A stretch of 56,167 nucleotides of DNA from Sedimentisphaerales bacterium (GTDB taxonomy: Bacteria > Planctomycetota > Phycisphaerae > Sedimentisphaerales > SM23-30). Under the pieces are notes generated by a model, which was not told the DNA's origin, did no database searches, and saw only the letters and a list, made by a program, of their open reading frames with translations. The position numbers were made by a program, and so were the translations under genes. This document shows positions 1 through 39,116 of this stretch, in pieces. Position 1 is the first letter of the stretch; each line of letters opens with the position of its first letter. The DNA lies in NCBI GenBank assembly GCA_016930295.1, contig JAFGHE010000269.1, positions 1 through 56,167 on the forward strand, read 5' to 3'.

Positions 1-507
1 ATTGACATTCCTTTTGCTACGGCAGAGTTTCTGGTTGACAGATATGGGGATAAGAAGCTTTTATATTGCCCCTCGAATAGAGTAACCAAGGACTTTGGTA
101 TTAATGAGCGTTATGTAAGTCATGAGAGTTATGGCTGGGTCGTTACAGACTACTTCTGGATGATGACTTTTGGCCTTGACTGGCGGAAATCAGATCTAAA
201 TCTGAATAACAGTACAGATAATTACTATAACAATCCACCATATAAGACGAAGATATTTGCCGATAAGTTTAACGTTCGCCGTGCGTCTGAACAACCCATG
301 ACGGCAGACTTTGTGGGCTTCCAAGATGGTACTAATGAAGACTTTACAAGAATTCAGGGGTGGGACCTGTTCAGTACAAATCATATTTCGTCGAATGGTG
401 AACCCGACGGCGGCAACACGGTGTTTTTTGATGGCCATACCGAATGGGTTCATTTTGATAGCATGGAAGTGCGGTACTATTCCCAAACTTTGCATCATTG
501 GTGGTAA
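1..507 (+). CDS. Prepilin-type/DUF1559 family protein, C-terminal part (H-X9-DG motif); 5' end outside the window
   Basis: Frame 1 is open from base 1 (IDIPFATAEFLVDRYGDKKLLYCPSN...). It has a YCPSN motif and the C-terminal NH...GGNTVFFDGHTEW typical of PVC prepilin-type proteins. Confidence 0.8.
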   Translation: MDIPFATAEFLVDRYGDKKLLYCPSNRVTKDFGINERYVSHESYGWVVTDYFWMMTFGLDWRKSDLNLNNSTDNYYNNPPYKTKIFADKFNVRRASEQPMTADFVGFQDGTNEDFTRIQGWDLFSTNHISSNGEPDGGNTVFFDGHTEWVHFDSMEVRYYSQTLHHWW

Positions 508-850
508 GAACGTCTGTATAGCGTCATAGTTTTTTGAGAGTTATCTATTTGTCTCATTAAATAGCTCATTGATTATTTTGTTTTTGCTGAAGTTACCAGG
601 TATAGGGTTTGCCTATACTGTAACATTATAAAGTTTATTTTTATAGTCACAGGCGAGAAATTAGTAGATTATTTTACGTGTAAAGGAGAATTTGTCAAGA
701 AAAGAGAAATTTTCCATGGTTTGACTGTTGAGGTGTTGTGTCTGGATACATATAGATTCGGGCGCGGCAATGGTTTAATCTCTATACTCGTGAGATTTGG
801 CGTAATTGGCTAAAAAAGGAAACCTAAATCGTGCTCTTAAGGAGAAAGTG

Positions 851-2815
851 ATGAAGAAATTGTTTATGTTGTTATTGATGCTGACATTGGGCCTTTGTAT
901 AGGCTCTAATGCCCAGGCGCAGAATTTATTGTTGAATACTGGATTTGATGACGGTGGATCCGGAAACTTCTGTGCTCCCGGCGCAGACCTGGATTACTGG
1001 ACCGATGTAGGATGCAATGGCTGGATACATTCGGATACTGTTGGAGGACTTCCAAGATTCCAGGGTGTTCAGACATTTAAGATATATGCTACTGACACAA
1101 GTGTCTATCAGGACGTTGCCGTTTCAGCCGGTTTTCCCTATGTTTTCAGCGTAGAAATTTTATCGCCCACGGCTCCTAACCCCTGGGGTGGCTCGGATCA
1201 GTTGACCGGGGGTCGCGATGCGATTATCATTGCCCAGTGGTTAGATGGTTCGGCAGTTCAGATTGGCGCCGACGTAATAGTGGCACGGTTTGTTGGCGGT
1301 GTTGATCCTGATGATACCTGGTACCCCATTTCTGGTTCCGCTACCGCACCTACCGGGGCCGCTAGCGTTCGCTTCAGACTTACTATTGATGACGTCTCCA
1401 GTTCCGTCGGAGCCCCTAACTATGAAAACGCGTCCTTGGTTCTTGGTGTCGATCCGGACAAAGCTGTTGGCGGTTTGCCTAACGGCGGCTTTACTAATCC
1501 CGGCGGCTTTGCCAATCCCGATACCACGACAGAACTAACCTGGACTAATCCCAGTAATACTCCGTCTTTGACCCAGATTTACCTGGATCAGGGACCTAAT
1601 CCAGAGGATCCAAACATTGATACTGCTCCGCTTTATGATTCCTGCACAGATGCCTGTGAATCATCTGCGGTTACCCTGACCGAAGGAAATTATTATCTCT
1701 GGCGGGTGGTGTGTGATGGTAATCCCAGTGCTGTCTGGGCCTTCAATACTGTCAACACGGCACCTGCTACCAGTGCCGGCCCGGATGAAAATGCCTGGCT
1801 GGTAAGTGGTGAGGTGGTTGTAACTCTCAGTGGTTCTGCCGATGACAATGACGGTTATCCCGGCGATCCTCTTACTTATAACTGGACCCAGACCGGTGGT
1901 ACGACCATGGCAATGACGGGTGAAACCACCCTGACCCCTGAGGTGACCTTTACGGCCGCTGGCTCCTATATATTCCAACTGGAAGCCGACGATGGCGTGG
2001 ACAGTGCCACGGATGATGTAACAATCACTGTTTATGCCGAAGCGGATGATCGGCTGGTGGCTCACTGGTCGTTTGAAGACAATCTGCTGGCTACCGTTGG
2101 TACCGGTATCGATGGGTCCGCAGCCGGCACCAACCCCATTGCCTATAACAGTGGTGTTGTGGGCCAGGCCCTGGAACTGGATGGTACCAACTATGTTGAG
2201 ATTGCCTCCAGCGTCGCGGATCCCAACATATTGCATTACAGCGATGAAATTACCGTCTCGGCCTGGGTCAGAGCCAATGTCGCCGGAACCTTTGGTCCCC
2301 AATTTTCCGGTGTGGTAACCAAGGGTGACAGTTCCTGGCGTGTTGCTATTGATGGTGGTGGGCAAAGTGCTGAATTTTCCGCTACCGGTGTGGGCAATAA
2401 CCAGTATGGTGCTATCTCGGGTGTCCAGGTTATTAGCGACAGCAACTGGCATCATGTTGTCGGTGTCGTTAATGGTAGCCAGATTCAGATTTATATCGAT
2501 GGAGTTCTCGATAATGCCGAAGATATTACAGATCCCATCGACAAGAATGAATTTGGTGTCTTCATCGGTAATAATGCCGAAGAGCCCGCTCGTAGGATTA
2601 ATGCCAGAATCGACGAAGTTCGTATTTTCGACAAAGGGCTTTCAGCTGCCCGGGTGCTGGCTCTGTATGCCGGTGACGGTGGCGGCGCTGCCTGTGGTCA
2701 GAACTACGCCGACACGGACTTTAATCATGACTGCAGAACGGATGAAATTGACCTGTTGATACTGGCTACCGGATGGCTTGATTGTACCGATTTAACCGGT
2801 GTTAACTGTAACTAA
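851..2815 (+). CDS. Secreted CBM4/9-like + PKD/Ig + LamG (concanavalin A-like) protein with single C-terminal dockerin-like repeat
   Basis: RBS AAGGAG before ATG 851; signal peptide; NLLLNTGFD...W.PISGSATAPTGA (CBM4/9-like); AGPD...YIFQLEADDG (PKD); LVAHWSFE...WHHVVGV...IDEVRIFD (LamG); DFNHDCRTDEIDLLILATGWL. Confidence 0.8.
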   Translation: MKKLFMLLLMLTLGLCIGSNAQAQNLLLNTGFDDGGSGNFCAPGADLDYWTDVGCNGWIHSDTVGGLPRFQGVQTFKIYATDTSVYQDVAVSAGFPYVFSVEILSPTAPNPWGGSDQLTGGRDAIIIAQWLDGSAVQIGADVIVARFVGGVDPDDTWYPISGSATAPTGAASVRFRLTIDDVSSSVGAPNYENASLVLGVDPDKAVGGLPNGGFTNPGGFANPDTTTELTWTNPSNTPSLTQIYLDQGPNPEDPNIDTAPLYDSCTDACESSAVTLTEGNYYLWRVVCDGNPSAVWAFNTVNTAPATSAGPDENAWLVSGEVVVTLSGSADDNDGYPGDPLTYNWTQTGGTTMAMTGETTLTPEVTFTAAGSYIFQLEADDGVDSATDDVTITVYAEADDRLVAHWSFEDNLLATVGTGIDGSAAGTNPIAYNSGVVGQALELDGTNYVEIASSVADPNILHYSDEITVSAWVRANVAGTFGPQFSGVVTKGDSSWRVAIDGGGQSAEFSATGVGNNQYGAISGVQVISDSNWHHVVGVVNGSQIQIYIDGVLDNAEDITDPIDKNEFGVFIGNNAEEPARRINARIDEVRIFDKGLSAARVLALYAGDGGGAACGQNYADTDFNHDCRTDEIDLLILATGWLDCTDLTGVNCN

Positions 2816-2848: not shown

Positions 2849-4843
2849 ATGAAAAAAACGCTAATAGTTTTAATGATAATGATATTATTGACAACGTCAC
2901 AGGCTTTTGCGGCAAATTCGCTGTATAATCCGGGCTTTGAGGATCCAGGCGCTACTGCTACGGGAGCTGATGTATGGGCCATGTGGCCGGAGACTATTGC
3001 ACTTGTTTACCACCAAAACGACCCCCTGGCACACGATGGTGATGATTTCATGGAACTGGCATACCCCCCTGAAACATGGGGAGTACTCTACCAGGACACT
3101 GGTAGTGAAAGTCCCGCAACTGCCGGCAACCAGTATACCTTTGGTGCTTACATGAGACTTCCTGCTGGTGGTTCTACAGTTAACGCTGCCATGAAGGTTG
3201 AATGGTACGCCAATTCGGGTGAGCCTCATGATAATGTTATAAGCGAACCGGAACAGCCGATCGTTATCGCCAGTGAAACCTGGACCGTGGTCTCTGCTAC
3301 GGTTACAGCCCCTGCTGGCGCCAACTACGGGAAAGTGGTGTTTGTTGCCGCAGCGGACCCCTATTACATCGATGATGCCTTCTTCTGTGAAGGCACTTCA
3401 CCTTGTATTGGGCCTACCGAACCAGATCCTGCTGATGGAAGTTTCGTGGATCCCTGCGATTTTGACAATAACCTCAGTTGGACTAACAGCGAGCCTGTTT
3501 GTCCTGGAGATGCGGTTAGTGTAGATGTATGGTATCGTCTCGATGATCCAAACGTTTTAGGCGGGACAAAGATCGTCGACAAACAGGCCGTATCGACCGT
3601 TAATATTGTCACTGCCGGACAGGCTGCGGTCGTTTTGGATCACGATTACTTCTGGACAGTGATCACGTATGATCCGGATACTTGTGGTGATGGTGAGGAT
3701 ATCATAGAAGGCCCTGTCTGGTCTTTCACTACCATTAACACGGCACCTGCCGTAACAGCCGGCTTTGATCAGAATGCCTGGCTCGAATCCGGCACCGTAA
3801 CGGTTGATCTTAATGGTGACGTAACCGATGATGTAGATAATTACCCGGGACCGCTCACCTGGCAATGGTCAGCCACCGGTGGCGTGATTGACGATGATAT
3901 GGCAATAGATACCACGATAACCTTCACGGCTCCAGGAACCTATACAGTCACTCTGGATGCCAGTGACGGCGATCTGCCGGGTACGGATTCGTTTGATATT
4001 ACCGTGTACGCCGAAGGAACTGCCGGTGACTATCTCGTAGCTCACTATCCGTTTGATGTTGATGCTTCAGATGCGACCGGACACGGCCATAACGGGACCT
4101 ATAACGGCGATGCCACGGTCTCTGGGGCTGATACTCAGGTTGGCGCCGGAGCTCTTTTACTCGACGGGACCGATGACTATGTGTATATCGCAGACAGTGC
4201 CGATCCCTGTGACCCCTGTGTCATCACCTGGGCCGATTTTGGTTCATCCGGGGTGTCGGAAGAAGTAACAATATCGGTATGGATCAAGCCTGCTGAGTGG
4301 TCAACTTCCTGGACCCAGATTGTATCAAAGGGGTTCTTGGCGGATCCAAACGAAAGTGGTTATAGACTTACCAGGCCTGACTATGATAGTGCTGTGTTCA
4401 CCTGTGGTGGTTTGCCATGGGATAATGGTACGGTTTGGGGTGGCGGCCAGTATACTCTGGGTGATGGTAGCTGGCATCACTTGGCGGCTGTCTGGGATGG
4501 CGGAAGAGTGGCCCTCTACATTGACGGCAATCTTCAGTACTACATGCCTGAGCCGCATGGGACATTGCTGCTCAAAAATGGCATGCAACTTCAGATCGGT
4601 GCTAACCAGGGAGCTGATTCTTCACAGCACTTCAACGGTCTTATCGACGATGTTCGCATATACGATGTTGGTCTTTCACACGCTGAGGTCCTCAAGCTCT
4701 ACGCATCTCAGGGTGGAAGCGGTACATGTGGATTGGAGTATGCAGATATCGATCTGACCCAGAATTGCGTGGTAAACCTCGAGGACTTTAATTTGTTTGC
4801 AGCTGAGTGGCTCGATTGCAGAGATCCCATTACCTGCCCATAA
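2849..4843 (+). CDS. Secreted CBM4/9-like + PKD/Ig + LamG protein with single dockerin-like repeat (paralog of upstream gene)
   Basis: RBS AAGGAG; signal peptide; NSLYNPGFE; LVAHYPFD...WHHLAAVWDG...IDDVRIYD; DLTQNCVVNLEDFNLFAAEWL. Confidence 0.8.
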   Translation: MKKTLIVLMIMILLTTSQAFAANSLYNPGFEDPGATATGADVWAMWPETIALVYHQNDPLAHDGDDFMELAYPPETWGVLYQDTGSESPATAGNQYTFGAYMRLPAGGSTVNAAMKVEWYANSGEPHDNVISEPEQPIVIASETWTVVSATVTAPAGANYGKVVFVAAADPYYIDDAFFCEGTSPCIGPTEPDPADGSFVDPCDFDNNLSWTNSEPVCPGDAVSVDVWYRLDDPNVLGGTKIVDKQAVSTVNIVTAGQAAVVLDHDYFWTVITYDPDTCGDGEDIIEGPVWSFTTINTAPAVTAGFDQNAWLESGTVTVDLNGDVTDDVDNYPGPLTWQWSATGGVIDDDMAIDTTITFTAPGTYTVTLDASDGDLPGTDSFDITVYAEGTAGDYLVAHYPFDVDASDATGHGHNGTYNGDATVSGADTQVGAGALLLDGTDDYVYIADSADPCDPCVITWADFGSSGVSEEVTISVWIKPAEWSTSWTQIVSKGFLADPNESGYRLTRPDYDSAVFTCGGLPWDNGTVWGGGQYTLGDGSWHHLAAVWDGGRVALYIDGNLQYYMPEPHGTLLLKNGMQLQIGANQGADSSQHFNGLIDDVRIYDVGLSHAEVLKLYASQGGSGTCGLEYADIDLTQNCVVNLEDFNLFAAEWLDCRDPITCP

Positions 4844-5535: not shown

Positions 5536-5755
5536 TCGGATATTAAAAGGAAAGGAAGAAAATGTATACGCCAACAAATTCTCTTCCGGTATTAACAATA
5601 TCTTTTAAACATATAGTTAGTTTCTCTGGAATGTGTATTTATTTGTATATTGTGTGTGAGTGATGGTGTGGTGAGTGTATTATTTTGTGGCCTGTAGATA
5701 AAATTAAGGCCTGGTTGTTAAAAGGAAAAACATTTCTCTTTTGGAGGAAAATGTG

Positions 5756-6373
5756 ATGAAAAATTTAATGGTAATTTTGTTAATATTGGCATTGGCCGGT
5801 TTCGCTCATGCGGAAATGCTCACAGCCAATAGAGGCTTTGAGGCCGGCGACACCAGTGACTGGTTGCAGTGGGGATCTGGTTCTGGTTCTGCCACGGGTG
5901 GTTGGAACAGTTGGCAAGACACCTGGGGGGCGGTAAATGACGGTACCGCCTATGAAGGTGACTGGTATGTCAACCTGACCCAGGACAACAACTGGTGGGG
6001 TTACAATCTGTGCTGGCAGGGCGAAGCAACGCTTATCCCGGTGGGTGCCGGCGTAAATCTTACGATGGGCGCCATGGTCAGGACTGCAGATGCAGATCCA
6101 TTCCTGAAGCTGGAATTTTATGATGCTGGCGGTGTCAACCTTGGCTTAGATTACGAAGTCAACTTTGGTACTACTATTGTCAAAGACGATACCTGGCAGT
6201 ACATCTCAATTAATTATCTAACACCTGCTGGTACGGATCATATTAGAGCCGGAATGGGCGCCAATAATGGTGTGTTCTCCGTTGACTTTGATGATGTATC
6301 AGTGATTCCTGAACCAATGACCCTGAGTCTTCTTGGTTTGGGCGGACTGTTCCTGCGTCGTCGCAGAGCATAA
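5756..6373 (+). CDS. PEP-CTERM protein with CBM4/9-like domain
   Basis: RBS GGAGG; signal peptide; ANRGFE...WQYISINYLTPAG...FDDVSV; ends IPEPMTLSLLGLGGLFLRRRRA. Confidence 0.88.
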   Translation: MKNLMVILLILALAGFAHAEMLTANRGFEAGDTSDWLQWGSGSGSATGGWNSWQDTWGAVNDGTAYEGDWYVNLTQDNNWWGYNLCWQGEATLIPVGAGVNLTMGAMVRTADADPFLKLEFYDAGGVNLGLDYEVNFGTTIVKDDTWQYISINYLTPAGTDHIRAGMGANNGVFSVDFDDVSVIPEPMTLSLLGLGGLFLRRRRA

Positions 6374-6448: not shown

Positions 6449-6554
6449 ATTTACAGAACGAACCTCCTGTTATTTATCGGAATAATAGGCTTGAAAAGCA
6501 TGTGAAGTTCGATACAATAGAATTTTGCCTGGCTTTATAGGGTATAGAGTTTTT

Positions 6555-25472: not shown

Positions 25473-25552
25473 GTGCGTTTTTATTTACAGTTTTAATGAA
25501 GTTAGTCAGGGGGCTGGTAGTAAACCTGATCCGGGGGTGCAACACTCTATTT

Positions 25553-28666: not shown

Positions 28667-28670
28667 TACG

Positions 28671-30701
28671 ATGAAGCATTTACGAAATTTAATTTTATAT
28701 AGTGCGATGGCCTGGGTGCTGTCGGGTATGGTGTATGCGGTTAACCCGTCCAGCCGTCCCGGCATGGGCGCTATACCCTACGATACGGGCACGACGTTTC
28801 GTGTCTGGGCCCCGAATGCACCTTCAATAAGTGTCGTCGGCAGTTTCAACGGATGGAATGCCAATTCAAATCCGCTCGCTGATGAAGGCGACGGCTTGTG
28901 GTCGGCGGATGTCACTGGTGCCGAAATCCTTGATCAATATAAGTATTACATCGATGGACTGTGGAAGACCGATCCTCGTGCCCGGGATGTTGTCAGTTCG
29001 GTGGGCAACGGCATCATTGTTGGTAACAGCTATGGCTGGACAGCTTATACTCCTCCGTCGTGGAATGATATGGTTATCTATGAAATGCATATCGGTACAT
29101 ACTATGATGCACCCGGCGGCAGTCCCGGTACCTGGCAGCTGGCCATGTCCAGACTGGACCATATTCAAGCCCTGGGTGTGAACGCCGTGGAGATTATGCC
29201 GGTTTCTGAGTTCCCGGGCGATTATTCCCTGGGCTACAATCCTGTCAATCTTTTTGCTCCGGAAAGCGCTTATGGCAGTCCCTATCAAATGCGAAGTTTC
29301 ATTGATGCCTGCCATCAGCGTGGGATGGCTGTTCTGATTGATGTGGTTTACAGCCACCTGGGGCCCACGGATCTGGATCAATCTCTGTGGCAATTTGATG
29401 GATTCAGCACGTATCCCGATACCGGTGGTATCTATTTCTATGAAGACGACAATCGCTATACCCCATGGGGTGATACGCGTCCGAATTATTTGACCAGTGA
29501 AGTACGTTCGTTCCTCTGTGATAACGTGTTGTATTGGCTCGATGATTATAATATGGATGGTGTGAGGATGGACGGAACCGCGTATATCCGGGAACGAGAC
29601 ATTGGGGGGCCGGATATCCCCGAAGGATGGTCGCTGATGCAATGGATTAATGATGAAGTTGATGCCGCCGATGCCCAGAAACTTTGTATTGCCGAAGATA
29701 TGCGAGACAATGACTGGATTACCAAAACGACCGGCGAGGGTGGAGCCGGTTTTGATTCCCAATGGGATGCCCGATTTCATCATAAGGTTGTACCGGCCCT
29801 GACCACTTCCGATGATCAGTATCGGAACATGTGGGAAGTCAGCGATGCGATCACCCATCTGTATAATGGCTGGGACACGCAGCGGGTCATTTATACCGAA
29901 AGCCACGATGAAGTGGGTTTGTCCAGCGGAAAATCCCGGGTGCCGGAACAAATCTGGCCGGGCAATGCGGACAGTTATTATTCGAAAAAGCGTTCTACCC
30001 TGGGGGCCGGCCTGGTATTTACCTCACCGGGTATTCCCATGATATTTATGGGTCAGGAGTTCCTGGAAGACGGTTCCTGGCACGATGATGACCCCCTGGA
30101 TTGGTCCAAGGATACGACCTTCGCCGGAATTAAACTGCTTTATACTCATTTGATCGGATTGCGGCGTAATTTTGCGGGTCATACTCTGGGTTTACTGGCC
30201 AGGAACGTCCATGTCTTTCATGTCAATGACACCGATAAAGTGATAGCGTTCCATCGATGGTGGAATGGAGGTCCCGGAGATGATACCATCATTGTGGCCA
30301 ACTTTTCCTATCAGGGGATCAGTGATTATAATATTGGGATGCCGCGGGGCGGACGATGGCGCGTACGGTTCAACAGTGACTGGAGTGGCTACGATCCGGA
30401 ATTTGGAGATTGGAGTTCCGGCGACACGTATGCCGGATCCGGCGTCAAAGACGGCCTGGATTATAATGCGAACGTGGGGGTTGGTCCGTATTCGATCATC
30501 ATTCTCTCCCAGGGTACCGGCCCGGATATTGATGAAAACGGAAAAGTAACTTTGGAAGACTTTGAGGTATTGGCGGATCAATGGCAAAACGGATGTGATG
30601 ATTGGGATTCATGCGGGGGGGCAGATTATAATATGAGCGGGCAGGTGGATATGATCGATCTGTTTGCCTTCGTGTCAGAGTGGCTCGATGGTACCGAATA
30701 A
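28671..30701 (+). CDS. Secreted GH13 alpha-amylase-family enzyme (CBM48 + branching enzyme/TreZ-like core) with double dockerin-like tail
   Basis: RBS AGGTGA; signal peptide; TTFRVWAPNA; IYEMHIG; DVVYSH; GVRMDG; IAED; ESHDEV; GIPMIFMGQEF; DIDENGKVTLEDF...DYNMSGQVDMIDL. Confidence 0.88.
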   Translation: MKHLRNLILYSAMAWVLSGMVYAVNPSSRPGMGAIPYDTGTTFRVWAPNAPSISVVGSFNGWNANSNPLADEGDGLWSADVTGAEILDQYKYYIDGLWKTDPRARDVVSSVGNGIIVGNSYGWTAYTPPSWNDMVIYEMHIGTYYDAPGGSPGTWQLAMSRLDHIQALGVNAVEIMPVSEFPGDYSLGYNPVNLFAPESAYGSPYQMRSFIDACHQRGMAVLIDVVYSHLGPTDLDQSLWQFDGFSTYPDTGGIYFYEDDNRYTPWGDTRPNYLTSEVRSFLCDNVLYWLDDYNMDGVRMDGTAYIRERDIGGPDIPEGWSLMQWINDEVDAADAQKLCIAEDMRDNDWITKTTGEGGAGFDSQWDARFHHKVVPALTTSDDQYRNMWEVSDAITHLYNGWDTQRVIYTESHDEVGLSSGKSRVPEQIWPGNADSYYSKKRSTLGAGLVFTSPGIPMIFMGQEFLEDGSWHDDDPLDWSKDTTFAGIKLLYTHLIGLRRNFAGHTLGLLARNVHVFHVNDTDKVIAFHRWWNGGPGDDTIIVANFSYQGISDYNIGMPRGGRWRVRFNSDWSGYDPEFGDWSSGDTYAGSGVKDGLDYNANVGVGPYSIIILSQGTGPDIDENGKVTLEDFEVLADQWQNGCDDWDSCGGADYNMSGQVDMIDLFAFVSEWLDGTE

Positions 30702-30716
30702 GACGGAAAGACCTGG

Positions 30717-33116
30717 ATGTTATTAACTACTTATATTAAAAAGAGATTTGGCTTTAGCCTGAAACAGATGGAGGTATTATTTGCCTTGATTTTGTTTATG
30801 TTGATATGCCTGGGAGGGACAGGGAGAGCAACCATTGCGATTCCGGCTGATTATACCGGAGATCAAAAAGTAACGCTGGCCGACTTTTCAGTAGTTGCCG
30901 AGAACTGGCTGGAGTTTACTGATACGGACGATTTAGACCGGTGTATTTTCCATTGGCTGATGGATGCGACTGTGGCACCGGAGGTATCCATACAGACGGT
31001 CTATACCGATAAATCGCGGTATGAACCGGGCCAGCAGAGTGTTATTACCGTAATCTGCAGTAACGATTCCGACAGTGCGTATCAGGGCTGGTTAAGCCTG
31101 AACATCACGCATCATGGACATTCTGTTCATACCAACAGGCAGGGGATATCGATTGATGCGTTTGGGTCCGACACGAAAACATTTGCGTGGACTGTCCCGG
31201 CGTCGGATTTTGAAGGGTATCTGGTTGAGGCGTGGCTTAATAATGGCGCCTGTGTCGTGACAGCCATCGATGTCTCAAGTGACTGGAAAAGGTATCCCCG
31301 TTATGGCTATGTTACGGAGTTTTATTCTTCAACATCCACCGGCAGAAATACCGAGATAATGGACGAACTCTCGCGGGATTACCACATCAACAGCCTGCAG
31401 TATTACGACTGGATGTGGCGGCATGAAAATGTAATCAAGCGAAATTATGTGGGCAACATTCTTTCTCCCTGGCTCGATTGGAGAGGCGCGAGTATTTCCT
31501 TTGATATTTTACAGGACTCGATCGCCAAGGCGAATGCCAGAGCGATGGCGCCGATGTCCTATTTCCAGATTTATCTGGGATTGGATGATTACGAGGCGAT
31601 CAGCGGGGTGAGCCCCCAGTGGGGACTGTATGCGGACACCGGTCATACGAACCAATATTATCATGATGCCGGAGTCTATATGTGGCTGTTTAATCCGGGC
31701 AATAGCAATTGGCAAAACCATCTGTTCGGTGAATATGAAGATGCGCTGGTGACGATGAATTGGGCCGGCATTCATCTGGATCAATTGGGCAATATCGGGG
31801 GAGGTGTTTATTACGATTATTGGGGCGGCGGGATCAATCTGGTATCTGCTTTGGGAAATATGCTGGATAACAGCAAGGACGAGCTTGATACACTGGAAAC
31901 GGTCTATCCCGAGGTGCAGGGACGTGACGCGCTGATTTTTAATATTGTCGATGGGGGCGTGGGCTATTGGGCAGTGGACACTGTCCTGGCGAGCAATGTG
32001 GATGTGATCTACAGTGAGTTATGGGGGAATTACACCTATGGCGGGGTCAAAGATTTTGTAAGGTATGCCCGGGCCAATTCCGGCGGGAAAGCCGTTATCC
32101 TGGCAGCCTATATCAATCAGGGTGAAGAGACAGGCGGATATTTTGATGCGGATAGTGTGCTGCTGGCCGATGCCGCTTTTTTTGCCTGTGGCGCGTTTCA
32201 CCTTGAATTGGGTGATGGTGAATATATGCTTGCTCAGGAATATTTTCCGGCTCGTGACAAGCTTATCGGTGATGACCTGAGGGCCCGGCTCAGAGATTAT
32301 TACAACTTTATAACGGCCTATGAGAGGTTATTATTTGACCCTGATTTAAGATGTGGTGATGGCGGTCTGCAGTGGATATCCGCGACCGGATACAGTCTCT
32401 CGGGTGACGGTTATGGGAATACACTTTGGTTTTTGAACCGCGGCACGGGCACCTTTGAGATATTTCATCTAATCAATCTTCTGGGCAATGACAATCAGTG
32501 GCGTAATGTCGCCGCTACTCCGGCCGTGCAGCAGGACATTCCTGTGAAGCTTCGGTTAGGTCCCGATGCGGATGTTACGGGAGTTTACCTTGCTTCGCCG
32601 GACTCGGACGGCGGCATCTTGCACTCGATCCCCTATACCCTGGGATCGGATTCTCAGGGAGACTATGTATCCATTACCGTGCCGCGTCTTGAGTATTGGG
32701 ATATGATTTACGTCGAACGAACGGTCAATCCCCCTGCCAATGATCGCTATGAGGCCGAGGATGCGAACAAATGGTATGTGGGGGTCAATACCGACCACGG
32801 CGGATATTCCGGTACGGGATTTGTTGATCAGTATGCCGAGGTCAACGACAGTGTTAATTTCTATGTTGTGATTCCCCAGGCCGGGGATTATACGTTTACG
32901 TTCCGATATGCCAACGGCGATTCCAATGGAGACAGAAGTCTGATCGTCAACGGAGATATTCAGGGCGATATCAATTTTAACACTACGGGCAATTGGGATA
33001 CCTGGAGCACCGGCACCCGGGAAGTTTCTTTGGAACCGGGCGTCCATCAGGTGACGTTGTATTATGGTTCCTGGAACAGCGGGGCGATCAACCTGGATTA
33101 TCTGGAAATTCAATGA
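30717..33116 (+). CDS. GH66 dextranase / cycloisomaltooligosaccharide glucanotransferase-family enzyme with N-terminal dockerin-like repeat and C-terminal CBM35/CBM6-like module
   Basis: TDKSRYEPG, AIDVSSDWKRYPRYGY, INSLQYYDWMWRH, GIHLDQLG, YSELW, HLELGDG, DYYNFITAYE; RYEAEDA...GYSGTGFV...NLDYL. Confidence 0.9.
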   Translation: MLLTTYIKKRFGFSLKQMEVLFALILFMLICLGGTGRATIAIPADYTGDQKVTLADFSVVAENWLEFTDTDDLDRCIFHWLMDATVAPEVSIQTVYTDKSRYEPGQQSVITVICSNDSDSAYQGWLSLNITHHGHSVHTNRQGISIDAFGSDTKTFAWTVPASDFEGYLVEAWLNNGACVVTAIDVSSDWKRYPRYGYVTEFYSSTSTGRNTEIMDELSRDYHINSLQYYDWMWRHENVIKRNYVGNILSPWLDWRGASISFDILQDSIAKANARAMAPMSYFQIYLGLDDYEAISGVSPQWGLYADTGHTNQYYHDAGVYMWLFNPGNSNWQNHLFGEYEDALVTMNWAGIHLDQLGNIGGGVYYDYWGGGINLVSALGNMLDNSKDELDTLETVYPEVQGRDALIFNIVDGGVGYWAVDTVLASNVDVIYSELWGNYTYGGVKDFVRYARANSGGKAVILAAYINQGEETGGYFDADSVLLADAAFFACGAFHLELGDGEYMLAQEYFPARDKLIGDDLRARLRDYYNFITAYERLLFDPDLRCGDGGLQWISATGYSLSGDGYGNTLWFLNRGTGTFEIFHLINLLGNDNQWRNVAATPAVQQDIPVKLRLGPDADVTGVYLASPDSDGGILHSIPYTLGSDSQGDYVSITVPRLEYWDMIYVERTVNPPANDRYEAEDANKWYVGVNTDHGGYSGTGFVDQYAEVNDSVNFYVVIPQAGDYTFTFRYANGDSNGDRSLIVNGDIQGDINFNTTGNWDTWSTGTREVSLEPGVHQVTLYYGSWNSGAINLDYLEIQ

Positions 33117-35773
33117 AAATCGCTAAAACATTTATCCTTTGTCATTTGGTCTTTTCACCGTTTGCCTTTTCACAGGTTTTCACGACGTATCATTGGCATT
33201 TACAACAGCCGATTTATTGGCCGGAAACGAGTAACTGGGACAATCATACCTATCAGAAGGCATACGAAAGTATGATCATCGGCGCTGCACACCCCGAGAA
33301 TGATTTGGATCAGATTTTCGGAAAGGCCGATCGCGTCGCAGCCTATCAATATCGGATTCGTGATGCGATCGGGACAATCCAGCAAACCGATGGGGGGGCA
33401 CAGATTTCGTATTCGGGGTGTTTGGTTGAAAATGTGGCAAGCCTGGCAAACGCCGGCTCACTCGGCTATTACACCGGCTGGGAGAATGCCAATCGTGAAG
33501 CGCGAAACTGGTTCACGTCCGGAGGGCATCGCAAACTGGATATCGTAATATTTCCCTACCATCATGTTTTGGGTCCCTTGGTTGATGAGCGAGCGCTGCG
33601 CAAGGAAATTCAAATTTATAAGGAATTATACCCTGATATTTGGGGAAATGACGTTTCGGTGGGTTATTTTCCGGCAGAACTTTCGTTTACGGAACGGATG
33701 ATTCAAGTGCTGGTGGAAGAGGGCATTGAGTGGGTGTTTGTACCGAACAATCATGTTTCCAGGGCATGCGAGAATTTTCCCCTCACCCTGGGAACGGGCG
33801 GCGAGATGTGTGATCCACCCAATTTGGCGGATATACTGAATCCTCCGCAATCGAACTGGTTTTCCAAAACCATTGATCGCGGTTGTACACCGACCAATGC
33901 CTATCCGTTTGCGTATCAGCCCCATAAGGCGAAATATGTCAATCCTGAAACTGGTCAGGAATATAAAATTACGGTAGTGCCGGTGGCCCAGGCGATGAGC
34001 TGGTCCGATGGGTATCAGCAATACGGAACGGGAGACATTGATCAAATTGCCTGGGCAGCCGGTGAGAACGATCCGATTCTGGTAGTGCTCGCCCACGACG
34101 GAGATAACGCTTATGGCGGGGGGTATTCGTATTATATGGAAAGTGTCCGACAATTTTGCAATGCGGCGGCGGCTGCCGGCTATGTGCCGACGGTTATGGA
34201 ACAATACCTTCAACAGTATCCGGTTTCAGACTCTGATGTCATTCATGTGGAAGACGGTTCGTGGGTGAATGCAGACGGTGATTTCGGGTCCCCGGATTTT
34301 ATCAATTGGAACTGGCCCCTTTTTGATCAGAATGGACAATTTGACATAGCCAATGGCTGGGCGGAAGATGAGAGAAACTGGGCCGTCATCACAGCGGCGC
34401 AAAACCGGGTGGAAACGGCCGAGCAGATTGCCGGCGGTGTGAATATAGCGCAAATTCAAAATCCCGACAGTTCGGCATCCAACGCTGAATTGGCATGGCA
34501 TTTTTTCCTGCCGTCACTGACGAGTGGATATATGTATTACGGTACGGCGCTGGATATGGAAGTCAAGCCGACGATTGCATGTAACAATGCCATTGCCAAG
34601 GCAAATCTGGTGATTGGCGATGGTTTACAGGATCAGACGCCCCCGACGATCTGGATTCCGCAGCAGCTGCCGCACAATCCGGGCGGAACCGGTTTTGGAT
34701 CGCTTTGGGGGTATCAGGCGGTTGAGCATATGCGAGATTTTTGGGTCTGGACATTTGTTTCGGATGTCTCCGGCGTGGCGGAGGTGACCTTGAAATATCG
34801 AATTGATAATGACGGCGCCAATCCCCTCTCATCAAACCAGAATGAAACCTATGCTGGCGGAAGTGAGGTGGGTTCATGGGTGAGTCTGCCGATGCAGTTT
34901 CGCGATTTTCCGGCTGAAAATGTTTACAATAATCCGGACATCGATTTCTTTGAAATGCCGATCGAAATCGCCGATCAGTATTTTATTCATGTCGAAGAGC
35001 CGGCCATTGTCGATGAAGGCGGCGTGCTGGTGGACTATTTTGTCCAGGCCACGGATACCAATGGTTATATCAAACGCTCCCCGATTTTACACACGTTCGT
35101 TGGAACCGGCGGCACGGGCGGCGGTAATCCGGATGATGATTTTGTGATGGATGGCTCGTTAGATGAAAATGCACAATTTATCGGCTCTGAAAATGCGGTT
35201 GATTTTTACGCCGACTGGAATGATGTGCAATTGTATGTTGCCTGTGATCCGGCTGTCAATGAAGATCATTTTATTTTTATTTCGGATGGTAATTCTTCGA
35301 TGGGCTCTGCGCCATGGGCCAAATCAGGCTCGGTTGTGCAGTGGCAGGCCTATTTGGGTAATGAATCTACCAATGGCTGGAGCGGCTGGTTTGATGGCGG
35401 CAGCCAGCAGGTACGAGGAACCGTTTTAGAGGGAGTGCTCGATTGGAATGCAGAATTCGGAGTGATGCCGGAATTTGTTTTTCTGGCTATGGGTGCTTAT
35501 CAGACCCAGGATGGGGGCAGTCTGCAATTTCAGATTCCGGCAGGGAATGGAGATGGAGATATCGACATTTCAGAGTTTCATATGTTAAATCTGCGTGGTG
35601 ATCTGAATTTCGATGGAAGAATCGATATGAAAGACTTTGCCGTCTTTGCGACTCATTGGATGGAAAATAACTGTAATGAAGTTAATAACTGGTGCGGCGG
35701 GGCAGACTTGAATCATGTCAATGACGTGAACATCGAGGATTTTGCTGAGTTCGCTTCCTGTTGGTTAAAGTAG
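33113..35773 (+). CDS. GH119/GH57-like alpha-amylase, secreted, with CBM9/DOMON-like module and double dockerin-like tail
   Basis: ATGA overlap with GH66; HWHLQQP; GYFPAELSFTERMI...NNHVSR; VLAHDGDN; VEDGSW; DLNFDGRIDMKDF...DLNHVNDVNIEDF. Confidence 0.72.
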   Translation: MKIAKTFILCHLVFSPFAFSQVFTTYHWHLQQPIYWPETSNWDNHTYQKAYESMIIGAAHPENDLDQIFGKADRVAAYQYRIRDAIGTIQQTDGGAQISYSGCLVENVASLANAGSLGYYTGWENANREARNWFTSGGHRKLDIVIFPYHHVLGPLVDERALRKEIQIYKELYPDIWGNDVSVGYFPAELSFTERMIQVLVEEGIEWVFVPNNHVSRACENFPLTLGTGGEMCDPPNLADILNPPQSNWFSKTIDRGCTPTNAYPFAYQPHKAKYVNPETGQEYKITVVPVAQAMSWSDGYQQYGTGDIDQIAWAAGENDPILVVLAHDGDNAYGGGYSYYMESVRQFCNAAAAAGYVPTVMEQYLQQYPVSDSDVIHVEDGSWVNADGDFGSPDFINWNWPLFDQNGQFDIANGWAEDERNWAVITAAQNRVETAEQIAGGVNIAQIQNPDSSASNAELAWHFFLPSLTSGYMYYGTALDMEVKPTIACNNAIAKANLVIGDGLQDQTPPTIWIPQQLPHNPGGTGFGSLWGYQAVEHMRDFWVWTFVSDVSGVAEVTLKYRIDNDGANPLSSNQNETYAGGSEVGSWVSLPMQFRDFPAENVYNNPDIDFFEMPIEIADQYFIHVEEPAIVDEGGVLVDYFVQATDTNGYIKRSPILHTFVGTGGTGGGNPDDDFVMDGSLDENAQFIGSENAVDFYADWNDVQLYVACDPAVNEDHFIFISDGNSSMGSAPWAKSGSVVQWQAYLGNESTNGWSGWFDGGSQQVRGTVLEGVLDWNAEFGVMPEFVFLAMGAYQTQDGGSLQFQIPAGNGDGDIDISEFHMLNLRGDLNFDGRIDMKDFAVFATHWMENNCNEVNNWCGGADLNHVNDVNIEDFAEFASCWLK

Positions 35774-36022: not shown

Positions 36023-38998
36023 ATGTATCTCAAAGCGACGAGTATGATTCTTGTTATTTTGTTTTTAGCGTGTGAATCCGTTTATTCCGATGTGGTGTGG
36101 TCGGATGAATTTGACGGCCCTGATATCAATAGGGACATTTGGACCTATGATGTTGGCGGATGGGGTTTTGGCAATGGCCAGTTCGAATATGACACCGCCC
36201 GTCAGGAAAATTCTTATATAGAGTCCGGCAGTCTTGTCATAGAAGCTCGTCGTGAAGACTATTTCGGCAATCAATTTACATCTGCAAGAATGCTTACCCA
36301 GGGGCGATTTGCTTTCAAATACGGCAGCCTTGAAGCCAGGATAAAATTCCCTGATACCGCCAATGGGTTGTGGCCGGCCTTCTGGATGCTGGGCAACAAT
36401 TTTCCTGCAATTGACTGGCCGATGGCGGGTGAGATAGACATCGTCGAGATGGGCTCAAAAGCCGGAATCGATGAAGGCCTTCAGCAGGAGAAGATCAACT
36501 GTGCGATACACTTCTCGGATGCCATGGGAGACTATGGTATGGATGTAGCATGGACCGATGCCGCCGTTGATCTCAGCCTCGATTACCATCTCTACAAAAT
36601 TTCCTGGACTCCTGCGGATATAACATTTTATCTTGACGGTGTTCCCTATGGCTCATGGGACATCACCCCTGATTATCTCAGGGAGTATCATCAGCCCTGT
36701 TTTGCTATCATTAACGTAGCTATCGGCGGCTGGGATCCCTCCTATACGGGAATATATGATCCCGGCCTGGTAACGGCCGCGTTCCCTGCAAAAATGTATG
36801 TTGACTGGATTCGACTTTCCAGCAACCCGTATACGGAACTCTGCCTGGGTGATGATATCGAGGAATTCGACAACTTCGGAATTTATACTGAAACAACGCC
36901 GGTGAACAATTCACTTGTTTATGGAGATGATACAGATCCCCAGTTCGAATATGGAACCGCGGCGGCCCTGTACCCATGGAACAATATGACCGAGTCACCC
37001 ACACCACCGCCTGCTTCTGAGGGAAGCGAGTGCTGGTCGTTTGATATCGCCGCGGGCAGCTGGTATGGAATGGGAGTCTTTCTGCCCAATTTTCGAAATA
37101 TGAAAAACTACTCTGACGGGTATCTCCACTTTGATATAAAGACAACCGGGACCGATCCTGTGAAAATTGGAATTAAAAGTTCCAGAGGCGGCGAATTCTG
37201 GCTGCCCCTGGGAGACGAAACAGCCGAGTTCGGGTTTGTTCGTGACGGGAACTGGCATGAGGTTAGTATTCCTCTCAACAGATATGCAAATACTGATTTC
37301 CTTACCATACATCAAATGTTCATGATCGCAGGTGACCCGCCTTCTTCATCCATGAACTTATCAATAGACAATGTATGGTGGGAACCAAGCCTGCCCAGGC
37401 CGACGCCCCAACAGGGTAATTTCGGTGTTTACACCGAAACGGCCTCAAACAGGGACGCGGGAGAATTTGGCCTTGGTATTGACGGCGACTTTTTTATATG
37501 GGAAAACACGCTGGTGGAGGGCACCCCGAGTCCCTATGAAGGCAGCGTGAGCATAAGCCTGGAATCAGCACCCGGTTTGAGCTGGTTTGCGGCAGCCTTT
37601 ACTCCGAATGTAAAACACAACCTGACAGCCTATAGATACCCGGAAAGCAGACTGCATTTTGCCATGAAGACCGGTTCATTAACACCTTTTATGATTGGAA
37701 TGAAAAGTGGCAACGTCGATGGGATCGGTCAGAAATGGATACCATTCGAGTCGGGCAGCGACCCGTACGGATTTGTTCGAGACGGCACATGGCATGTGAT
37801 AGATATACCGATGTCCGATATTACCACAGAAGTTGATCTTTCTGAGGTAAGCCAGCTCTTTCAGGTTTTAGGCATAAGCGGTTCGATTTCCGACATCGAA
37901 TTTGACGATATTTGCTTTACCGGAGGCGGCAGCCCCCTCGTCGGCGATGACAATCTTCCTCCTTCCGTAAGCATAACCAGCCCGGCCAGCGGCACATTTT
38001 TCAATCCGGGAGAGGATATTACGATTGAAGCTGATGCGAGTGACCCGGATGGAGATGGAACAGTAACCAAAGTAGAGTTTTACGAAGGGCTGAATTTATT
38101 AGGCGAAGACCTGGTAAGCCCTTACAGTTTTACTTTGAACAGTGTTTCGCAAGGCACGTATACGTTTAGGGCAAAAGCCACTGATCCCAATGATGCAACG
38201 CGTACTTCCGCACCGGTAACGGTTTATGTTGGCGTACCGGAATTGACATTGATTAATGTATCCCCGTCAACAGCAAGCATTGAAGAGGGGACAATACAGC
38301 AATTTACTGCGACGGGCCTTGACCAGTTCGGGCAGGAATTTCCGGCAGAAGTCAGCTGGTCCGTTTCGGGCGGTGGTGTGATCGACGAGAACGGATTCTT
38401 TGTAGCAGTGGATGTTGGCGGGCCATATACCGTTATGGCGGTAGAGGTGGTAGAAGGTATACTATCAGGAACAGCAAATGTCGATGTGTACGCCGGCGGG
38501 GTATGCAGCGGCCCATCAGGAAATGGTGATTACACCTGGGAAGCGAGCGGATCTGAGAGTAATCCAACCATCACGTTTATTCCTGCCAGGCCTGGAGTAG
38601 GAGATAGTCTGGTGATTCTCTATTATTCATTTTTGCCTGAAGGCGCTTACCCGGGTTACATTACAACGCCTGGTACACCCTACCCGATCCCGGGCACGTA
38701 TCCTGGTCAGACAGTCTATTTCTATTATACCTACAGCGTCCCGGAAGGGGGCGAACACACCACCTATGGAAACGAGCATAGTTTTCAGGTGGGCGTTTGC
38801 GACGCAATCATAGCCAGTGATTTCAACGGCAGCGGCAGAGTGAATCTTTCTGATTTTGCCCGTCTGGCAGGCTACTGGATGCAAACAAATTGCGAAGAGG
38901 GCAATAATTACTGCGAAGGGACCGACCATGTAGGAGATGGTGACGTAGATATCTATGACCTCTACTTGCTTATCTATAGCTGGTTAAAAGGAGATTGA
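36023..38998 (+). CDS. GH16 endo-beta-1,3-glucanase (laminarinase type), multimodular, with double dockerin-like tail
   Basis: Signal peptide; WSDEFDG, FTSARM, LWPAFWMLG, WPMAGEIDIVEM (EIDxxE catalytic); two repeated accessory modules, Ig-like domains; DFNGSGRVNLSDF...DHVGDGDVDIYDL. Confidence 0.92.
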   Translation: MYLKATSMILVILFLACESVYSDVVWSDEFDGPDINRDIWTYDVGGWGFGNGQFEYDTARQENSYIESGSLVIEARREDYFGNQFTSARMLTQGRFAFKYGSLEARIKFPDTANGLWPAFWMLGNNFPAIDWPMAGEIDIVEMGSKAGIDEGLQQEKINCAIHFSDAMGDYGMDVAWTDAAVDLSLDYHLYKISWTPADITFYLDGVPYGSWDITPDYLREYHQPCFAIINVAIGGWDPSYTGIYDPGLVTAAFPAKMYVDWIRLSSNPYTELCLGDDIEEFDNFGIYTETTPVNNSLVYGDDTDPQFEYGTAAALYPWNNMTESPTPPPASEGSECWSFDIAAGSWYGMGVFLPNFRNMKNYSDGYLHFDIKTTGTDPVKIGIKSSRGGEFWLPLGDETAEFGFVRDGNWHEVSIPLNRYANTDFLTIHQMFMIAGDPPSSSMNLSIDNVWWEPSLPRPTPQQGNFGVYTETASNRDAGEFGLGIDGDFFIWENTLVEGTPSPYEGSVSISLESAPGLSWFAAAFTPNVKHNLTAYRYPESRLHFAMKTGSLTPFMIGMKSGNVDGIGQKWIPFESGSDPYGFVRDGTWHVIDIPMSDITTEVDLSEVSQLFQVLGISGSISDIEFDDICFTGGGSPLVGDDNLPPSVSITSPASGTFFNPGEDITIEADASDPDGDGTVTKVEFYEGLNLLGEDLVSPYSFTLNSVSQGTYTFRAKATDPNDATRTSAPVTVYVGVPELTLINVSPSTASIEEGTIQQFTATGLDQFGQEFPAEVSWSVSGGGVIDENGFFVAVDVGGPYTVMAVEVVEGILSGTANVDVYAGGVCSGPSGNGDYTWEASGSESNPTITFIPARPGVGDSLVILYYSFLPEGAYPGYITTPGTPYPIPGTYPGQTVYFYYTYSVPEGGEHTTYGNEHSFQVGVCDAIIASDFNGSGRVNLSDFARLAGYWMQTNCEEGNNYCEGTDHVGDGDVDIYDLYLLIYSWLKGD

Positions 38999-39116
38999 AT
39001 GTTTTAGTACTGGTTTCATATCTTATGAAATCATGGTTACTAATAACTTTAATCGTCCTCATATCCGGTGTTTTTAATCCAGAAACAAGCGTTTGCAATA
39101 CTTTTGACGCTGGCGT

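Follow-up and report, generated by a model that had tools for sequence, protein, structure and literature searches.

Two glucan loci without a SusC/D pair

How polysaccharides are taken up without SusC/D in the Planctomycetota and their relatives is an open question, and positions 1-39000 of contig C47 from a Sedimentisphaerales bacterium (Phycisphaerae) pose it in concrete form. The window, meaning the whole stretch of DNA analysed here, is the entire contig of 56167 bases; it belongs to a 329-contig, 4.23 Mb metagenome-assembled genome (MAG) that is 88.6% complete, and its left end is an assembly break, at which the first of two gene arms is cut. When all long open reading frames (ORFs) of the window were scanned against Pfam and NCBIfam, six carbohydrate-active enzymes (CAZymes) could be assigned at family level within 1-39000 (GH161, GH31, CBM48-GH13, GH66-CBM35, GH57-like and GH16), together with a LacI repressor, an extracytoplasmic function (ECF) sigma factor paired with a FecR-NPCBM anti-sigma factor, three LamG_3 proteins and two PEP-CTERM binders (Table 1). 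The six glucan CAZymes and two regulatory systems described in an initial annotation of this DNA are thus present. The same scans found no member of the TonB-dependent, SusD, sugar-ABC, MFS or SSF families in any ORF of 1-39000, as the annotation had also claimed, and no adjacent SusC-like TonB-dependent transporter and SusD-like lipoprotein among the ORFs of the window; over the full contig the sole ABC system is CcmAB, at 40.6-42.1 kb, and there is no TonB-dependent transporter. Reading from genes alone, we consider it moderately probable that the two arms are adjacent glucan-utilisation loci of an anaerobic planctomycete for surface-anchored capture and degradation, free of SusC/D but not of transporters.

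The word 'transporter-less', used of the system in the initial annotation, holds for this stretch of DNA and not for the system as a whole, which is instead SusC/D-free. The beta-glucan arm encodes a GH161 beta-1,3-glucan phosphorylase, residues 30-988 of which align with residues 8-963 of PDB 9qqk_A, 'GH161 phosphorylase', at E 3e-180. This match to GH161 chains in the PDB corrects the family first guessed for the enzyme; GH149 was dropped (68 bits against a cut-off of 1150), and GH94 was likewise set aside for GH161. The phosphorylase has no signal peptide at its N-terminus, whereas all other enzymes and binders of the window begin with one (signal peptides were judged by eye), and a predicted cytoplasmic enzyme of this kind therefore needs an imported substrate. 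Orthologues occur in two of five near-complete relatives, and in the closed genome G069 the LacI-GH161 pair is preserved (LacI 9e-134; GH161 59% identity) within a beta-glucan locus that also holds a PEP-CTERM gene orthologous to that at 5741-6373 (4e-10) and an MFS_2 gene (237 bits). Thus, in a complete genome the beta-glucan arm is not transporter-less, and the arm in the window has lost or relocated its transporter. The multi-transmembrane genes downstream of the G069 phosphorylase were rejected as sugar transporters; they form an RND efflux set.

Elsewhere in the MAG, counting family matches rather than genes (as for all genome-wide counts of transporters, exosortases, secretins and ATPases below), there are 8 matches to MFS_2, 9 to SSF and 12 to ABC permeases, four of the last being Opp-type and beside a glycogen-debranching enzyme, as well as 4 to the TonB-dependent family PF00593 (contigs C171, C77 and C227). 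On contig C258 a gene set like that of the window, with LacI, PEP-CTERM, tagged LamG, prepilin and tagged GH2 genes, stands beside an MFS_2 transporter (by 'tag' we mean a dockerin-like calcium-loop repeat, treated below). Within the sigma-led operon of the alpha-glucan arm (19979-35773, with the GH16 gene appended) a transporter was found in none of nine loci, the window included, by Pfam for most ORFs and by a hydropathy count for the rest; G069 has a 399-aa ORF with four transmembrane segments and no family on the opposite strand, and in G042 the nearest MFS gene lies ~25 kb off. The best-supported reading is that inner-membrane transport is ordinary, and is encoded elsewhere or, in relatives, within the locus. 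Separately, two frames of 760-770 aa on C66 and C251 match MFS_2 in two halves with a long stretch between them, a pattern suggestive of GPH-type transporters into which a domain has been inserted.

A cassette that recurs in the genome and in relatives

The initial annotation also held that each arm repeats one kit of regulator, tagged LamG protein, small PEP-CTERM protein and enzymes. The cassette is real, and its families recur beside glycan enzymes both in the MAG and in its relatives; one correction concerns the regulator of the first arm, where LacI adjoins GH161 and lies 12 kb from the binders. To put numbers on the clustering, we labelled 144 tagged proteins (recognised by a hidden Markov model (HMM) of the genome's own repeat), 24 PEP-CTERM and 45 prepilin-type proteins in the MAG, and shuffled the labels 500 times, taking two genes as the greatest distance. 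PEP-CTERM genes lie near a tagged gene in 12 of 24 cases against 2.9 expected, and prepilin genes in 13 of 45 against 5.2, values that none of the 500 shuffles reaches; for PEP-CTERM genes near a prepilin gene the count is 3 of 24 against 1.1 expected, and 45 of the 500 shuffles reach it. The tag is borne by 16 of the 23 LamG proteins in the genome, and when 84 ORFs at 12 further loci of the MAG were scanned against Pfam, C200 proved to encode the tail of an NPCBM anti-sigma factor together with LamG/Ig/tag and PEP-CTERM proteins. On C306 (1172-6112, L011), a DUF4465 PEP-CTERM gene, a tagged gene and a prepilin-like gene lie upstream of a Peripla_BP_2/ABC/FecCD set of iron or B12 type.

Eight other loci contain the sigma-led alpha-glucan operon (G069, G035, G044, G042, G037, L013, L086 and L088; Table 1). 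Seven of the nine have a PEP-CTERM gene within the operon or immediately before it, with a borderline Pfam score in G042, and six have a prepilin-like gene inside it, the exceptions being the window, L013 and L088. Orthologues of the X25/CBM48 PEP-CTERM protein occur in 5 of 60 relatives, and the LamG/Ig family is encoded on nine metagenome contigs. The nearest GH66 locus is from a 'Phycisphaerae bacterium', and one of ten relatives of the window's Ig/LamG protein from an 'Anaerohalosphaeraceae bacterium'. GH66 is itself rare in the order, being present in 7 of 201 sampled genomes with the MAG included, and its nearest relatives outside the Phycisphaerae, in Clostridia, Cohnella and an Anaerolineaceae MAG, share 46-48% identity; lateral acquisition is possible on this sequence comparison. 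Because both the label shuffles and the conserved synteny point the same way, the kit is more than chance. It might nonetheless be argued that there is no functional unit at all, and that genes for exoproteins of expanded families merely cluster, with the kit as a by-product: 144 of 3381 crude ORFs, encoding proteins of many types, bear the tag, and the shuffle control ignores the clustering of exoprotein genes. We find this explanation scarcely credible: the genes have the same arrangement in three families of the order and in metagenome contigs, with 35-66% protein identity, and the binder heads fit the substrate class of the neighbouring enzymes.

The order of the genes at the head of the operon has suggested another role for the kit. 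In the MAG the next gene after each of the four anti-sigma genes of the window's type is a LamG/tag gene (C29, C47 and C200) or a prepilin gene (C48), and the same order is seen in G069 (in two cassettes), G035, G044 and L086, so that the gene in this position could fill a slot like that of FecA or SusC and relay polymer binding to the anti-sigma factor. Such a sensor module seems highly doubtful to us, however, because the anti-sigma factor has a carbohydrate-binding-type NPCBM domain of its own that would make a relay unneeded, because GH66 directly follows the anti-sigma gene in G042 and G037, and because LacI-led loci bear the same kit. The second of the two G069 cassettes (C1:2840000-2859999, 5972-10950; L073) comprises sigma, anti-sigma, prepilin and LamG/tag genes followed by genes for a 1062-aa and an 878-aa (DUF3472) protein; it lies 10-20 kb from the GH66 operon, with resolvase, integrase and DUF5906 phage-type genes between.

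Binders, anchors and tags

In the beta-glucan arm, the small PEP-CTERM protein matches residues 1-175, the CBM4_9 head, of the LamG protein at 2849-4843 (BLASTP E 1e-8). The sharing of modules between PEP-CTERM and LamG proteins proposed in the initial annotation therefore stands for this arm; in the alpha-glucan arm of the MAG it was rejected, since the X25 protein has no similarity to the head of the LamG protein at 22374-24515 (E 0.73). In the corresponding arm of relatives, sharing is seen for X25 heads and for CBM74-like heads (phmmer 8e-64), as in L084 and L085, where the PEP-CTERM protein is a paralogue of the LamG-protein head. Over the MAG and its relatives, the PEP-CTERM ectodomains are paralogues of LamG-protein heads in three module types. 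The fit between modules and enzymes is supported in both arms, X25/CBM48 and CBM74-like modules accompanying GH13, GH66 and GH31, and CBM4_9 the beta-glucan arm. It is therefore reasonable to give the binders a capture role like that of SusE/F, or of Sas6 and Sas20 in the amylosome of Ruminococcus bromii. To this extent the capture part of the annotation's inference is supported; GH161 still requires an importer.

For one of these heads the proposed likeness comes from structure. In the AlphaFold model of the Ig/LamG protein, residues 12-309 superpose on residues 253-579 of the Sas6 chain (Z 11.7, rmsd 3.4, 187 aligned, 13% identity; VIA-align), and a structure-atlas lead for the head segment is CBM9_1 at 0.87. 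In the part of the Sas6 report that describes it, CBM74 spans residues 242-572 and its core is likened to CBM9 (10.1101/2022.11.20.514607). One VIA-align row carries this likeness, and sequence methods do not see CBM74: the N-terminal 345 aa have no Pfam match at E<=1, the family profile against PDB sequences gives only Ig among the best 60 of 784 matches, and Foldseek against the PDB returns only Ig matches.

Sorting machinery is encoded in the genome. The tail of the CBM4_9-type PEP-CTERM protein, 'IPEPMTLSLLGLGGLFLRRRRA', is a clear PEP/TM/RRRR signal even though its Pfam PEP-CTERM score (16.0 bits) falls under the cut-off of 20.7, and the X25/CBM48 protein passes both that cut-off (27.1 bits) and that of TIGR02595 (23.4 against 16). 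Two matches to the exosortase family PF09721 (198.8 and 178.3 bits) lie on C119 and C322. As for the tags, the motif D-x-[ND]-x-[DN]-x-x-[VI]-[DN]-x-x-D-[FLM]-x-x-[FLIV]-[AV]-x-x-W is present in nine window proteins, with a single C-terminal copy in each LamG protein, a single N-terminal copy in GH66, and two copies in the GH13, GH57-like, GH16 and (N-terminally) CotH proteins. Scored in isolation against the Dockerin_1 cut-off of 22.9, two of eight pass (GH16, 29.4 bits; CotH, 26.0 bits), whereas those of GH57-like (20.1), GH13 (19.1) and GH66 (13.6) fall below it and the three LamG half-repeats have no Pfam Dockerin_1 match. 'Dockerin-tagged LamG', as the annotation had it, is thus a matter of resemblance in a single half-repeat, not of membership in the family. 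Across the 11 sequences of the Ig/LamG family the half-repeat keeps its two Cys, one Asp and the Trp-Leu without exception, which argues that the tail is under constraint.

Taken together, these features suggest the following scheme. In the alpha-glucan arm, the anti-sigma factor, with a cytoplasmic N-terminus, one transmembrane segment (residues 134-157 by hydropathy), a periplasmic FecR domain and a C-terminal NPCBM, would sense periplasmic oligosaccharide and release the ECF sigma factor, whose gene overlaps its own by four bases. The operon would then yield a Sec-exported X25/CBM48 binder, fixed in the envelope through PEP-CTERM and exosortase, along with a Sas6-like protein and GH13, GH66, GH57-like and GH16 enzymes bearing dockerin-like calcium-loop tags, which could hold them at the surface via a partner other than cohesin. 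Dextran- or starch-like chains would be bound and cut outside the cell, GH31 would trim the oligosaccharides, and the sugars would enter by unlinked MFS_2, SSF or ABC systems. Capture of the polymer in the beta-glucan arm would fall to two LamG proteins of CBM4_9 type and the PEP-CTERM protein paralogous to them, and beta-1,3-oligosaccharides would be imported, by the product of the MFS_2 gene in the case of G069, and then phosphorolysed by cytoplasmic GH161 under LacI control. The prepilin-like protein would be a conserved accessory of the cassette, most likely a short pseudopilus-type fibre that acts with the binders at the envelope.

Several observations weigh against this interpretation. 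The substrates we name follow from family membership, and none of the NCBIfam equivalogs for dextranase, MalA or GlgB is matched above its cut-off: GH66 covers its full Pfam model and scores 293 bits against NF052487 endo-dextranase, below the cut-off of 730, and GH31 scores 381 bits against MalA, below 800. The model behind the Sas6 comparison is poor overall (pLDDT 61.3) and fair at residues 13-217. The LamG half-repeats are recognised only by the HMM built from the genome's own repeats, and cohesin PF00963 has no match in the 88.6%-complete genome, where a divergent cohesin could escape detection. The alpha-glucan operon of the window has no prepilin gene. Moreover, a subtilase and GLUG and beta-helix proteins carry the tag as well, and it is also found next to an ABC system of B12/iron type; the kit is therefore not specific to glucans. 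On the side of method, the gene calls are crude longest ORFs (3381 genome-wide), and label shuffling, which takes no account of the general clustering of exoprotein genes, overstates the enrichment.

The prepilin-like protein

Prepilin/DUF1559 genes were said in the initial annotation to be interspersed through the locus, and of these one, at 13919-14785, is certain. Its product exceeds the cut-offs for N_methyl (32.1 bits against 21.2) and TIGR02532 (30.9 against 16.3) and has no match to PF07596 (DUF1559, SBP_bac_10) at E<=0.01. The family has at least 6180 homologues among 8000 scored candidates; best hits bear the name 'Planctomycetes bacterium', and among the matches listed some carry PF07596, which has seven weak N-terminal matches elsewhere in the MAG. 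A second candidate, the truncated ORF at 1-507, is possibly an H-X9-DG/DUF1559-like paralogue: a G069 prepilin-like ORF matches it at 4e-16, while Pfam gives nothing at E<=1 and hhalign aligns only 22 columns of the prepilin alignment, around the DGH motif, at a probability of 13%. The AlphaFold model of the certain protein (pLDDT 87.1, pTM 0.86) has a 50-residue N-terminal helix (residues 8-58) and a 230-residue head. Foldseek found no PDB match for it at E<=0.001, only the N-terminal helix being aligned, and in VIA-align all of the top 15 rows are type IV pilins or pseudopilins, at Z<=4.8 only. The modelled fold is consistent with an enlarged pilin without being conclusive.

What could such a protein do? 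It might be one of a series of cargo-specific pseudopilins of a type II secretion system (T2SS) that help to export or place large neighbouring exoproteins and have no part in uptake. Homologues are indeed annotated as T2SS proteins, NCBIfam gives matches to GspG/GspH at the N-terminus, the genes adjoin very large secreted proteins (the 1560-aa CotH protein in the window, LamG proteins in relatives), and the genome has 6 secretins and ~8 GspE/PilB-like ATPases. Yet Foldseek finds no significant match between the 230-aa head and any solved pseudopilin, and the known T2SS employs one fixed set of pseudopilins, which does not fit the 26-60 paralogues per genome counted in five relatives. We therefore regard a role restricted to secretion or display as rather improbable.

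Alternatively, locus-specific prepilin-like subunits could build a retractile 'fishing' pilus that bears the LamG and PEP-CTERM binders at its tip or along its length, catches entire glucan chains and draws them through a secretin to the periplasm, and so replaces SusC/D. Pilus-mediated uptake is an already published hypothesis, and it coincides with the idea of the initial annotation. Accounts of periplasmic dextran uptake by planctomycetes propose pili as the route, and the 'fishing rod' model for Planctomycetia, in the portions of these reports that set it out, names no genes and leaves the players unknown (PMC12078418, PMC12673574). In Akkermansia muciniphila, pili and periplasmic complexes are described as needed for mucin accumulation, and mucin import as needing pili-type genes, in the relevant sections of PMC12418764. 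Several findings speak for the idea: the prepilin-like gene lies inside six of nine sigma-led operons and occurs twice in the G069 beta-glucan locus, the family has the 26-60 copies per genome already mentioned, and the MAG encodes, beside its secretins, 5 PilT-family ATPases above the curated cut-off. On the other hand, the alpha-glucan operon of the window lacks such a gene in cis; all enzymes but GH161 are exported, most with surface-type tags, which suits cutting outside the cell better than import of whole chains; the support for a pilin fold is weak (Z<=4.8); and the same genes flank loci unrelated to glycans. On balance we think a fishing pilus unlikely. An extended version, which we judge distinctly unlikely, would make the expanded prepilin-like family of the Planctomycetota and their relatives a set of substrate-dedicated subunits of retractile fibres, one per glycan locus, each of which would reel whole chains into the periplasm with the help of a LamG/dockerin-like adaptor and of a second copy of the adaptor's binding module anchored by PEP-CTERM, the tags docking on pilin heads in place of cohesins. 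If true, it would supply the genetic basis of planctomycete polymer uptake and a second, SusC/D-independent form of 'selfish' glycan import. For the two loci themselves, we continue to favour surface capture and cutting followed by ordinary transport.

Relation to known systems

The arms share with the Sus-like polysaccharide utilisation loci (PULs) of Bacteroidota their co-located CAZymes, a regulator and non-catalytic glycan-binding proteins, and, as in many PULs, control by an ECF sigma/anti-sigma pair. They differ in lacking a SusC/SusD pair, in anchoring binders by PEP-CTERM rather than as lipoproteins, in an anti-sigma factor that carries a CBM-type domain of its own instead of contacting a TonB-dependent transducer, and in their dockerin-like tags and pilin-like genes. 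The closest parallel in enzyme content is the dextran PUL of Bacteroides thetaiotaomicron, in which we take the GH66 BT3087 to be encoded with a GH31; a GH66 paired with a GH31 in a co-regulated cluster is common to both, and the NCBIfam model matched by our GH66 is named 'EndoDexBT3087'. With FecI/FecR/FecA the alpha-glucan arm has in common an ECF sigma factor, a single-pass FecR anti-sigma factor and an envelope protein whose co-transcribed gene comes next; here, that next gene does not encode a TonB-dependent transducer, and the anti-sigma factor has the extra NPCBM.

A different likeness is to the amylosome of Ruminococcus bromii, where Sas6 is described, in the sections concerned with its domains, as CBM26-BIg-CBM74-BIg-dockerin (10.1101/2022.11.20.514607). 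Both systems pair a non-catalytic alpha-glucan binder (putative in our loci), with a CBM74-type head, Ig and a dockerin-type tail, with dockerin-tagged GH13 enzymes, and both have X25 modules as separate binders. In the amylosome these modules are presumably those of Sas20. Here, however, the host is Gram-negative, no cohesin or scaffoldin was found, the LamG proteins have a half-repeat only, and CBM74 is resembled in structure (Z 11.7) but in neither Pfam nor profile searches. The loci also recall the 'Planctosome' proposed for Nemodlikiaceae, with which they share dockerin-type modules and a giant lamin-tail-domain protein among planctomycete exoproteins of non-cellulosomal role. The pertinent part of PMC6461901 characterises that system by cohesin/dockerin modules, a lamin-tail-domain anchor and peptidases; our loci differ in having glucan enzymes in place of peptidases and no cohesin that we could find.

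The 'fishing rod' model, which reportedly originated with Boedeker et al. 2017, has in common with our loci the phylum, dextran and the proposed involvement of pilin-like proteins in polymer capture without SusC/D; what we add are gene-level candidates in dextranase-family operons of another class, the Phycisphaerae. The Akkermansia mucin locus, which we compare by description only, belongs to the same superphylum and has pilus-type genes genetically tied to glycan import, with a different substrate and different gene families. No description of the cassette turned up in full-text literature searches, and the main text of two comparative CAZyme papers makes no mention of dockerin, pilin or pili, sigma or PEP-CTERM. 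The locus and its orthologues name concrete candidates. Alongside enzymes of the dextranase and alpha-glucosidase families they encode an ECF sigma factor with a CBM-bearing anti-sigma factor, a PEP-CTERM binder, a LamG protein resembling Sas6 and a protein of pilin type. Its value lies in these testable candidates and not in a demonstrated new mechanism. Because the cassette is present in several closed genomes of the order, knock-outs and induction tests may be feasible if any of these organisms is cultured. The candidates would also link binder types of a gut Firmicute amylosome (CBM74 and X25) to a Gram-negative surface system, and they suggest a function for two very large families, the LamG/dockerin-like and the prepilin-like proteins.

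Gene content of the window and of related loci

Table 1. Genes of the two glucan arms in the window, followed by the gene order of the corresponding loci in relatives (aa, amino acids; bits, bit score; tag, dockerin-like repeat)
Feature	Position	Strand	Basis
5'-truncated ORF, 168 aa	1..507	+	C-terminal 'FFDGHTEW' motif
Secreted PKD + LamG_3 protein, one C-terminal dockerin-like half-repeat	806..2815	+	Pfam (Laminin_G_3 89.6, K319L-like PKD 46.3 bits); own HMM (residues 637-661); signal peptide by eye
Secreted CBM4_9 + PKD + LamG_3 protein, one dockerin-like half-repeat	2849..4843	+	Pfam (CBM_4_9 34.8 bits, cut-off 25.9; Laminin_G_3 87.2 bits); own HMM (residues 635-657)
Small PEP-CTERM protein (210 aa), CBM4_9-like ectodomain	5741..6373	+	BLASTP and tail motif
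Membrane-anchored sulfatase-superfamily + TPR protein	6525..8753	+	Sulfatase 161.9 bits, TPR families
1560-aa secreted protein: N-terminal double dockerin-like module, 4 lamin-tail domains, CHB_HEX_C, CotH kinase-like	9161..13843	+	LTD 193.2, CotH 159.6 bits
Prepilin-like protein, 288 aa	13919..14785	+	N_methyl, TIGR02532
GH161 beta-1,3-glucan phosphorylase, 1083 aa, predicted cytoplasmic	14854..18105	-	PDB match
LacI-family repressor upstream of GH161	18320..19345	-	LacI 66, Peripla_BP_3 96.2 bits
ECF sigma factor	19979..20512	+	Sigma70_r2 + r4_2; TIGR02989 128.3 bits (cut-off 124.55)
Anti-sigma factor	20509..22272	+	FecR 31.1, NPCBM 33.3 bits
Secreted protein: CBM74/CBM9-like head, Ig, LamG_3, Cys-flanked dockerin-like half-repeat	22374..24515	+	Pfam Ig, LamG; model
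Small PEP-CTERM protein (256 aa) of X25/CBM48 modules	24644..25414	+	X25_BaPul_like 34.9, CBM_48 23.4 bits
Secreted GH31 alpha-glucosidase-type enzyme	25496..28666	+	Glyco_hydro_31_2nd 405.1 bits
Secreted CBM48-GH13 enzyme, C-terminal double dockerin-like module	28647..30701	+	Alpha-amylase, CBM_48, Alpha-amylase_C
Secreted GH66 (dextranase family), N-terminal single dockerin-like repeat, C-terminal CBM35/6	30717..33116	+	Glyco_hydro_66 449.1 bits
Secreted GH57-like protein, C-terminal double dockerin-like module	32993..35773	+	Glyco_hydro_57 33.9 bits, partial
Secreted GH16 + Big_7 protein, C-terminal type I dockerin	36023..38998	+	Glyco_hydro_16 60.9, Big_7 65.5 bits
G069 (closed genome): sigma, anti-sigma, prepilin, Ig/LamG/tag, PEP-CTERM, GH13/double tag, tag/GH66, 861-aa (alpha/alpha)6-type protein, GH31			
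G035: sigma, anti-sigma, prepilin, X25/tag protein, X25 PEP-CTERM, GH66, GH13, GH57-like, GH31			
G044: sigma, 595-aa protein, prepilin, X25/Ig/LamG/tag, X25 PEP-CTERM, GH57-like, GH31			
G042: borderline PEP-CTERM, then sigma, anti-sigma, tag/GH66, Ig/LamG/tag, GH31, prepilin			
G037: sigma, anti-sigma, tag/GH66, Ig/LamG/tag, GH31, prepilin			Position, size and motifs only
L013 (Phycisphaerae MAG): PEP-CTERM, sigma, NPCBM anti-sigma, tag/GH66, GH31, contig end			
L086: sigma, anti-sigma, prepilin, tag protein, LamG/Ig, GH13, GH31			
L088: sigma, anti-sigma, PEP-CTERM, LamG, GH31-like			
G069 beta-glucan locus: GH16/double tag, PEP-CTERM, prepilin, LamG/tag (like that at 806..2815), prepilin, MFS_2, 669-aa protein, LacI, GH161			

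A few of these genes call for comment. The N-terminal 365 aa of the protein at 806-2815 have no Pfam match at E<=1, and the GH57-like protein has no PDB sequence match. The sulfatase-superfamily/TPR protein was considered as a carbohydrate sulfatase and doubted, since the C/S-x-P-x-R motif was not found in its first 200 aa; judged by this sequence, it is probably not a formylglycine sulfatase. It scores 98 bits, below the cut-off, against the PrsT model for TPR proteins of the PEP-CTERM system. A paralogue of the same architecture lies at C2:15262-17778, and both copies directly adjoin small PEP-CTERM genes; both may serve PEP-CTERM sorting and not desulfation. The succession of a giant CotH/lamin-tail gene, with a dockerin-like module, and a prepilin-like gene, seen at 9161-14785 of the window, is conserved at G014:C6 10651-17191 (L067).

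Beyond the two arms, Rfam at gathering thresholds gave no matches in the window and ARAGORN no tRNAs. A sigma-54 activator ORF on the minus strand (51556-53029), whose receiver domain is matched only from profile position 45, shares ~217 bases with another ORF, in a different frame, that encodes a histidine-kinase ATPase domain, and this overlap may reflect a frameshift, a mis-assembly or a wrong start. The region between it and the alpha-glucan arm, at 39934-51187 and likewise on the minus strand, contains genes for cytochrome c maturation (CcmC-like, CcmB, CcmA, CcmF and CcmE), followed by genes for a 382-aa protein with 8 CXXCH motifs and an NHL/six-bladed propeller protein. The same stretch encodes two proteins of 405-425 aa without an assigned family and a NapC/NirT-like dihaem protein, and it may represent a respiratory or extracellular electron-transfer module.

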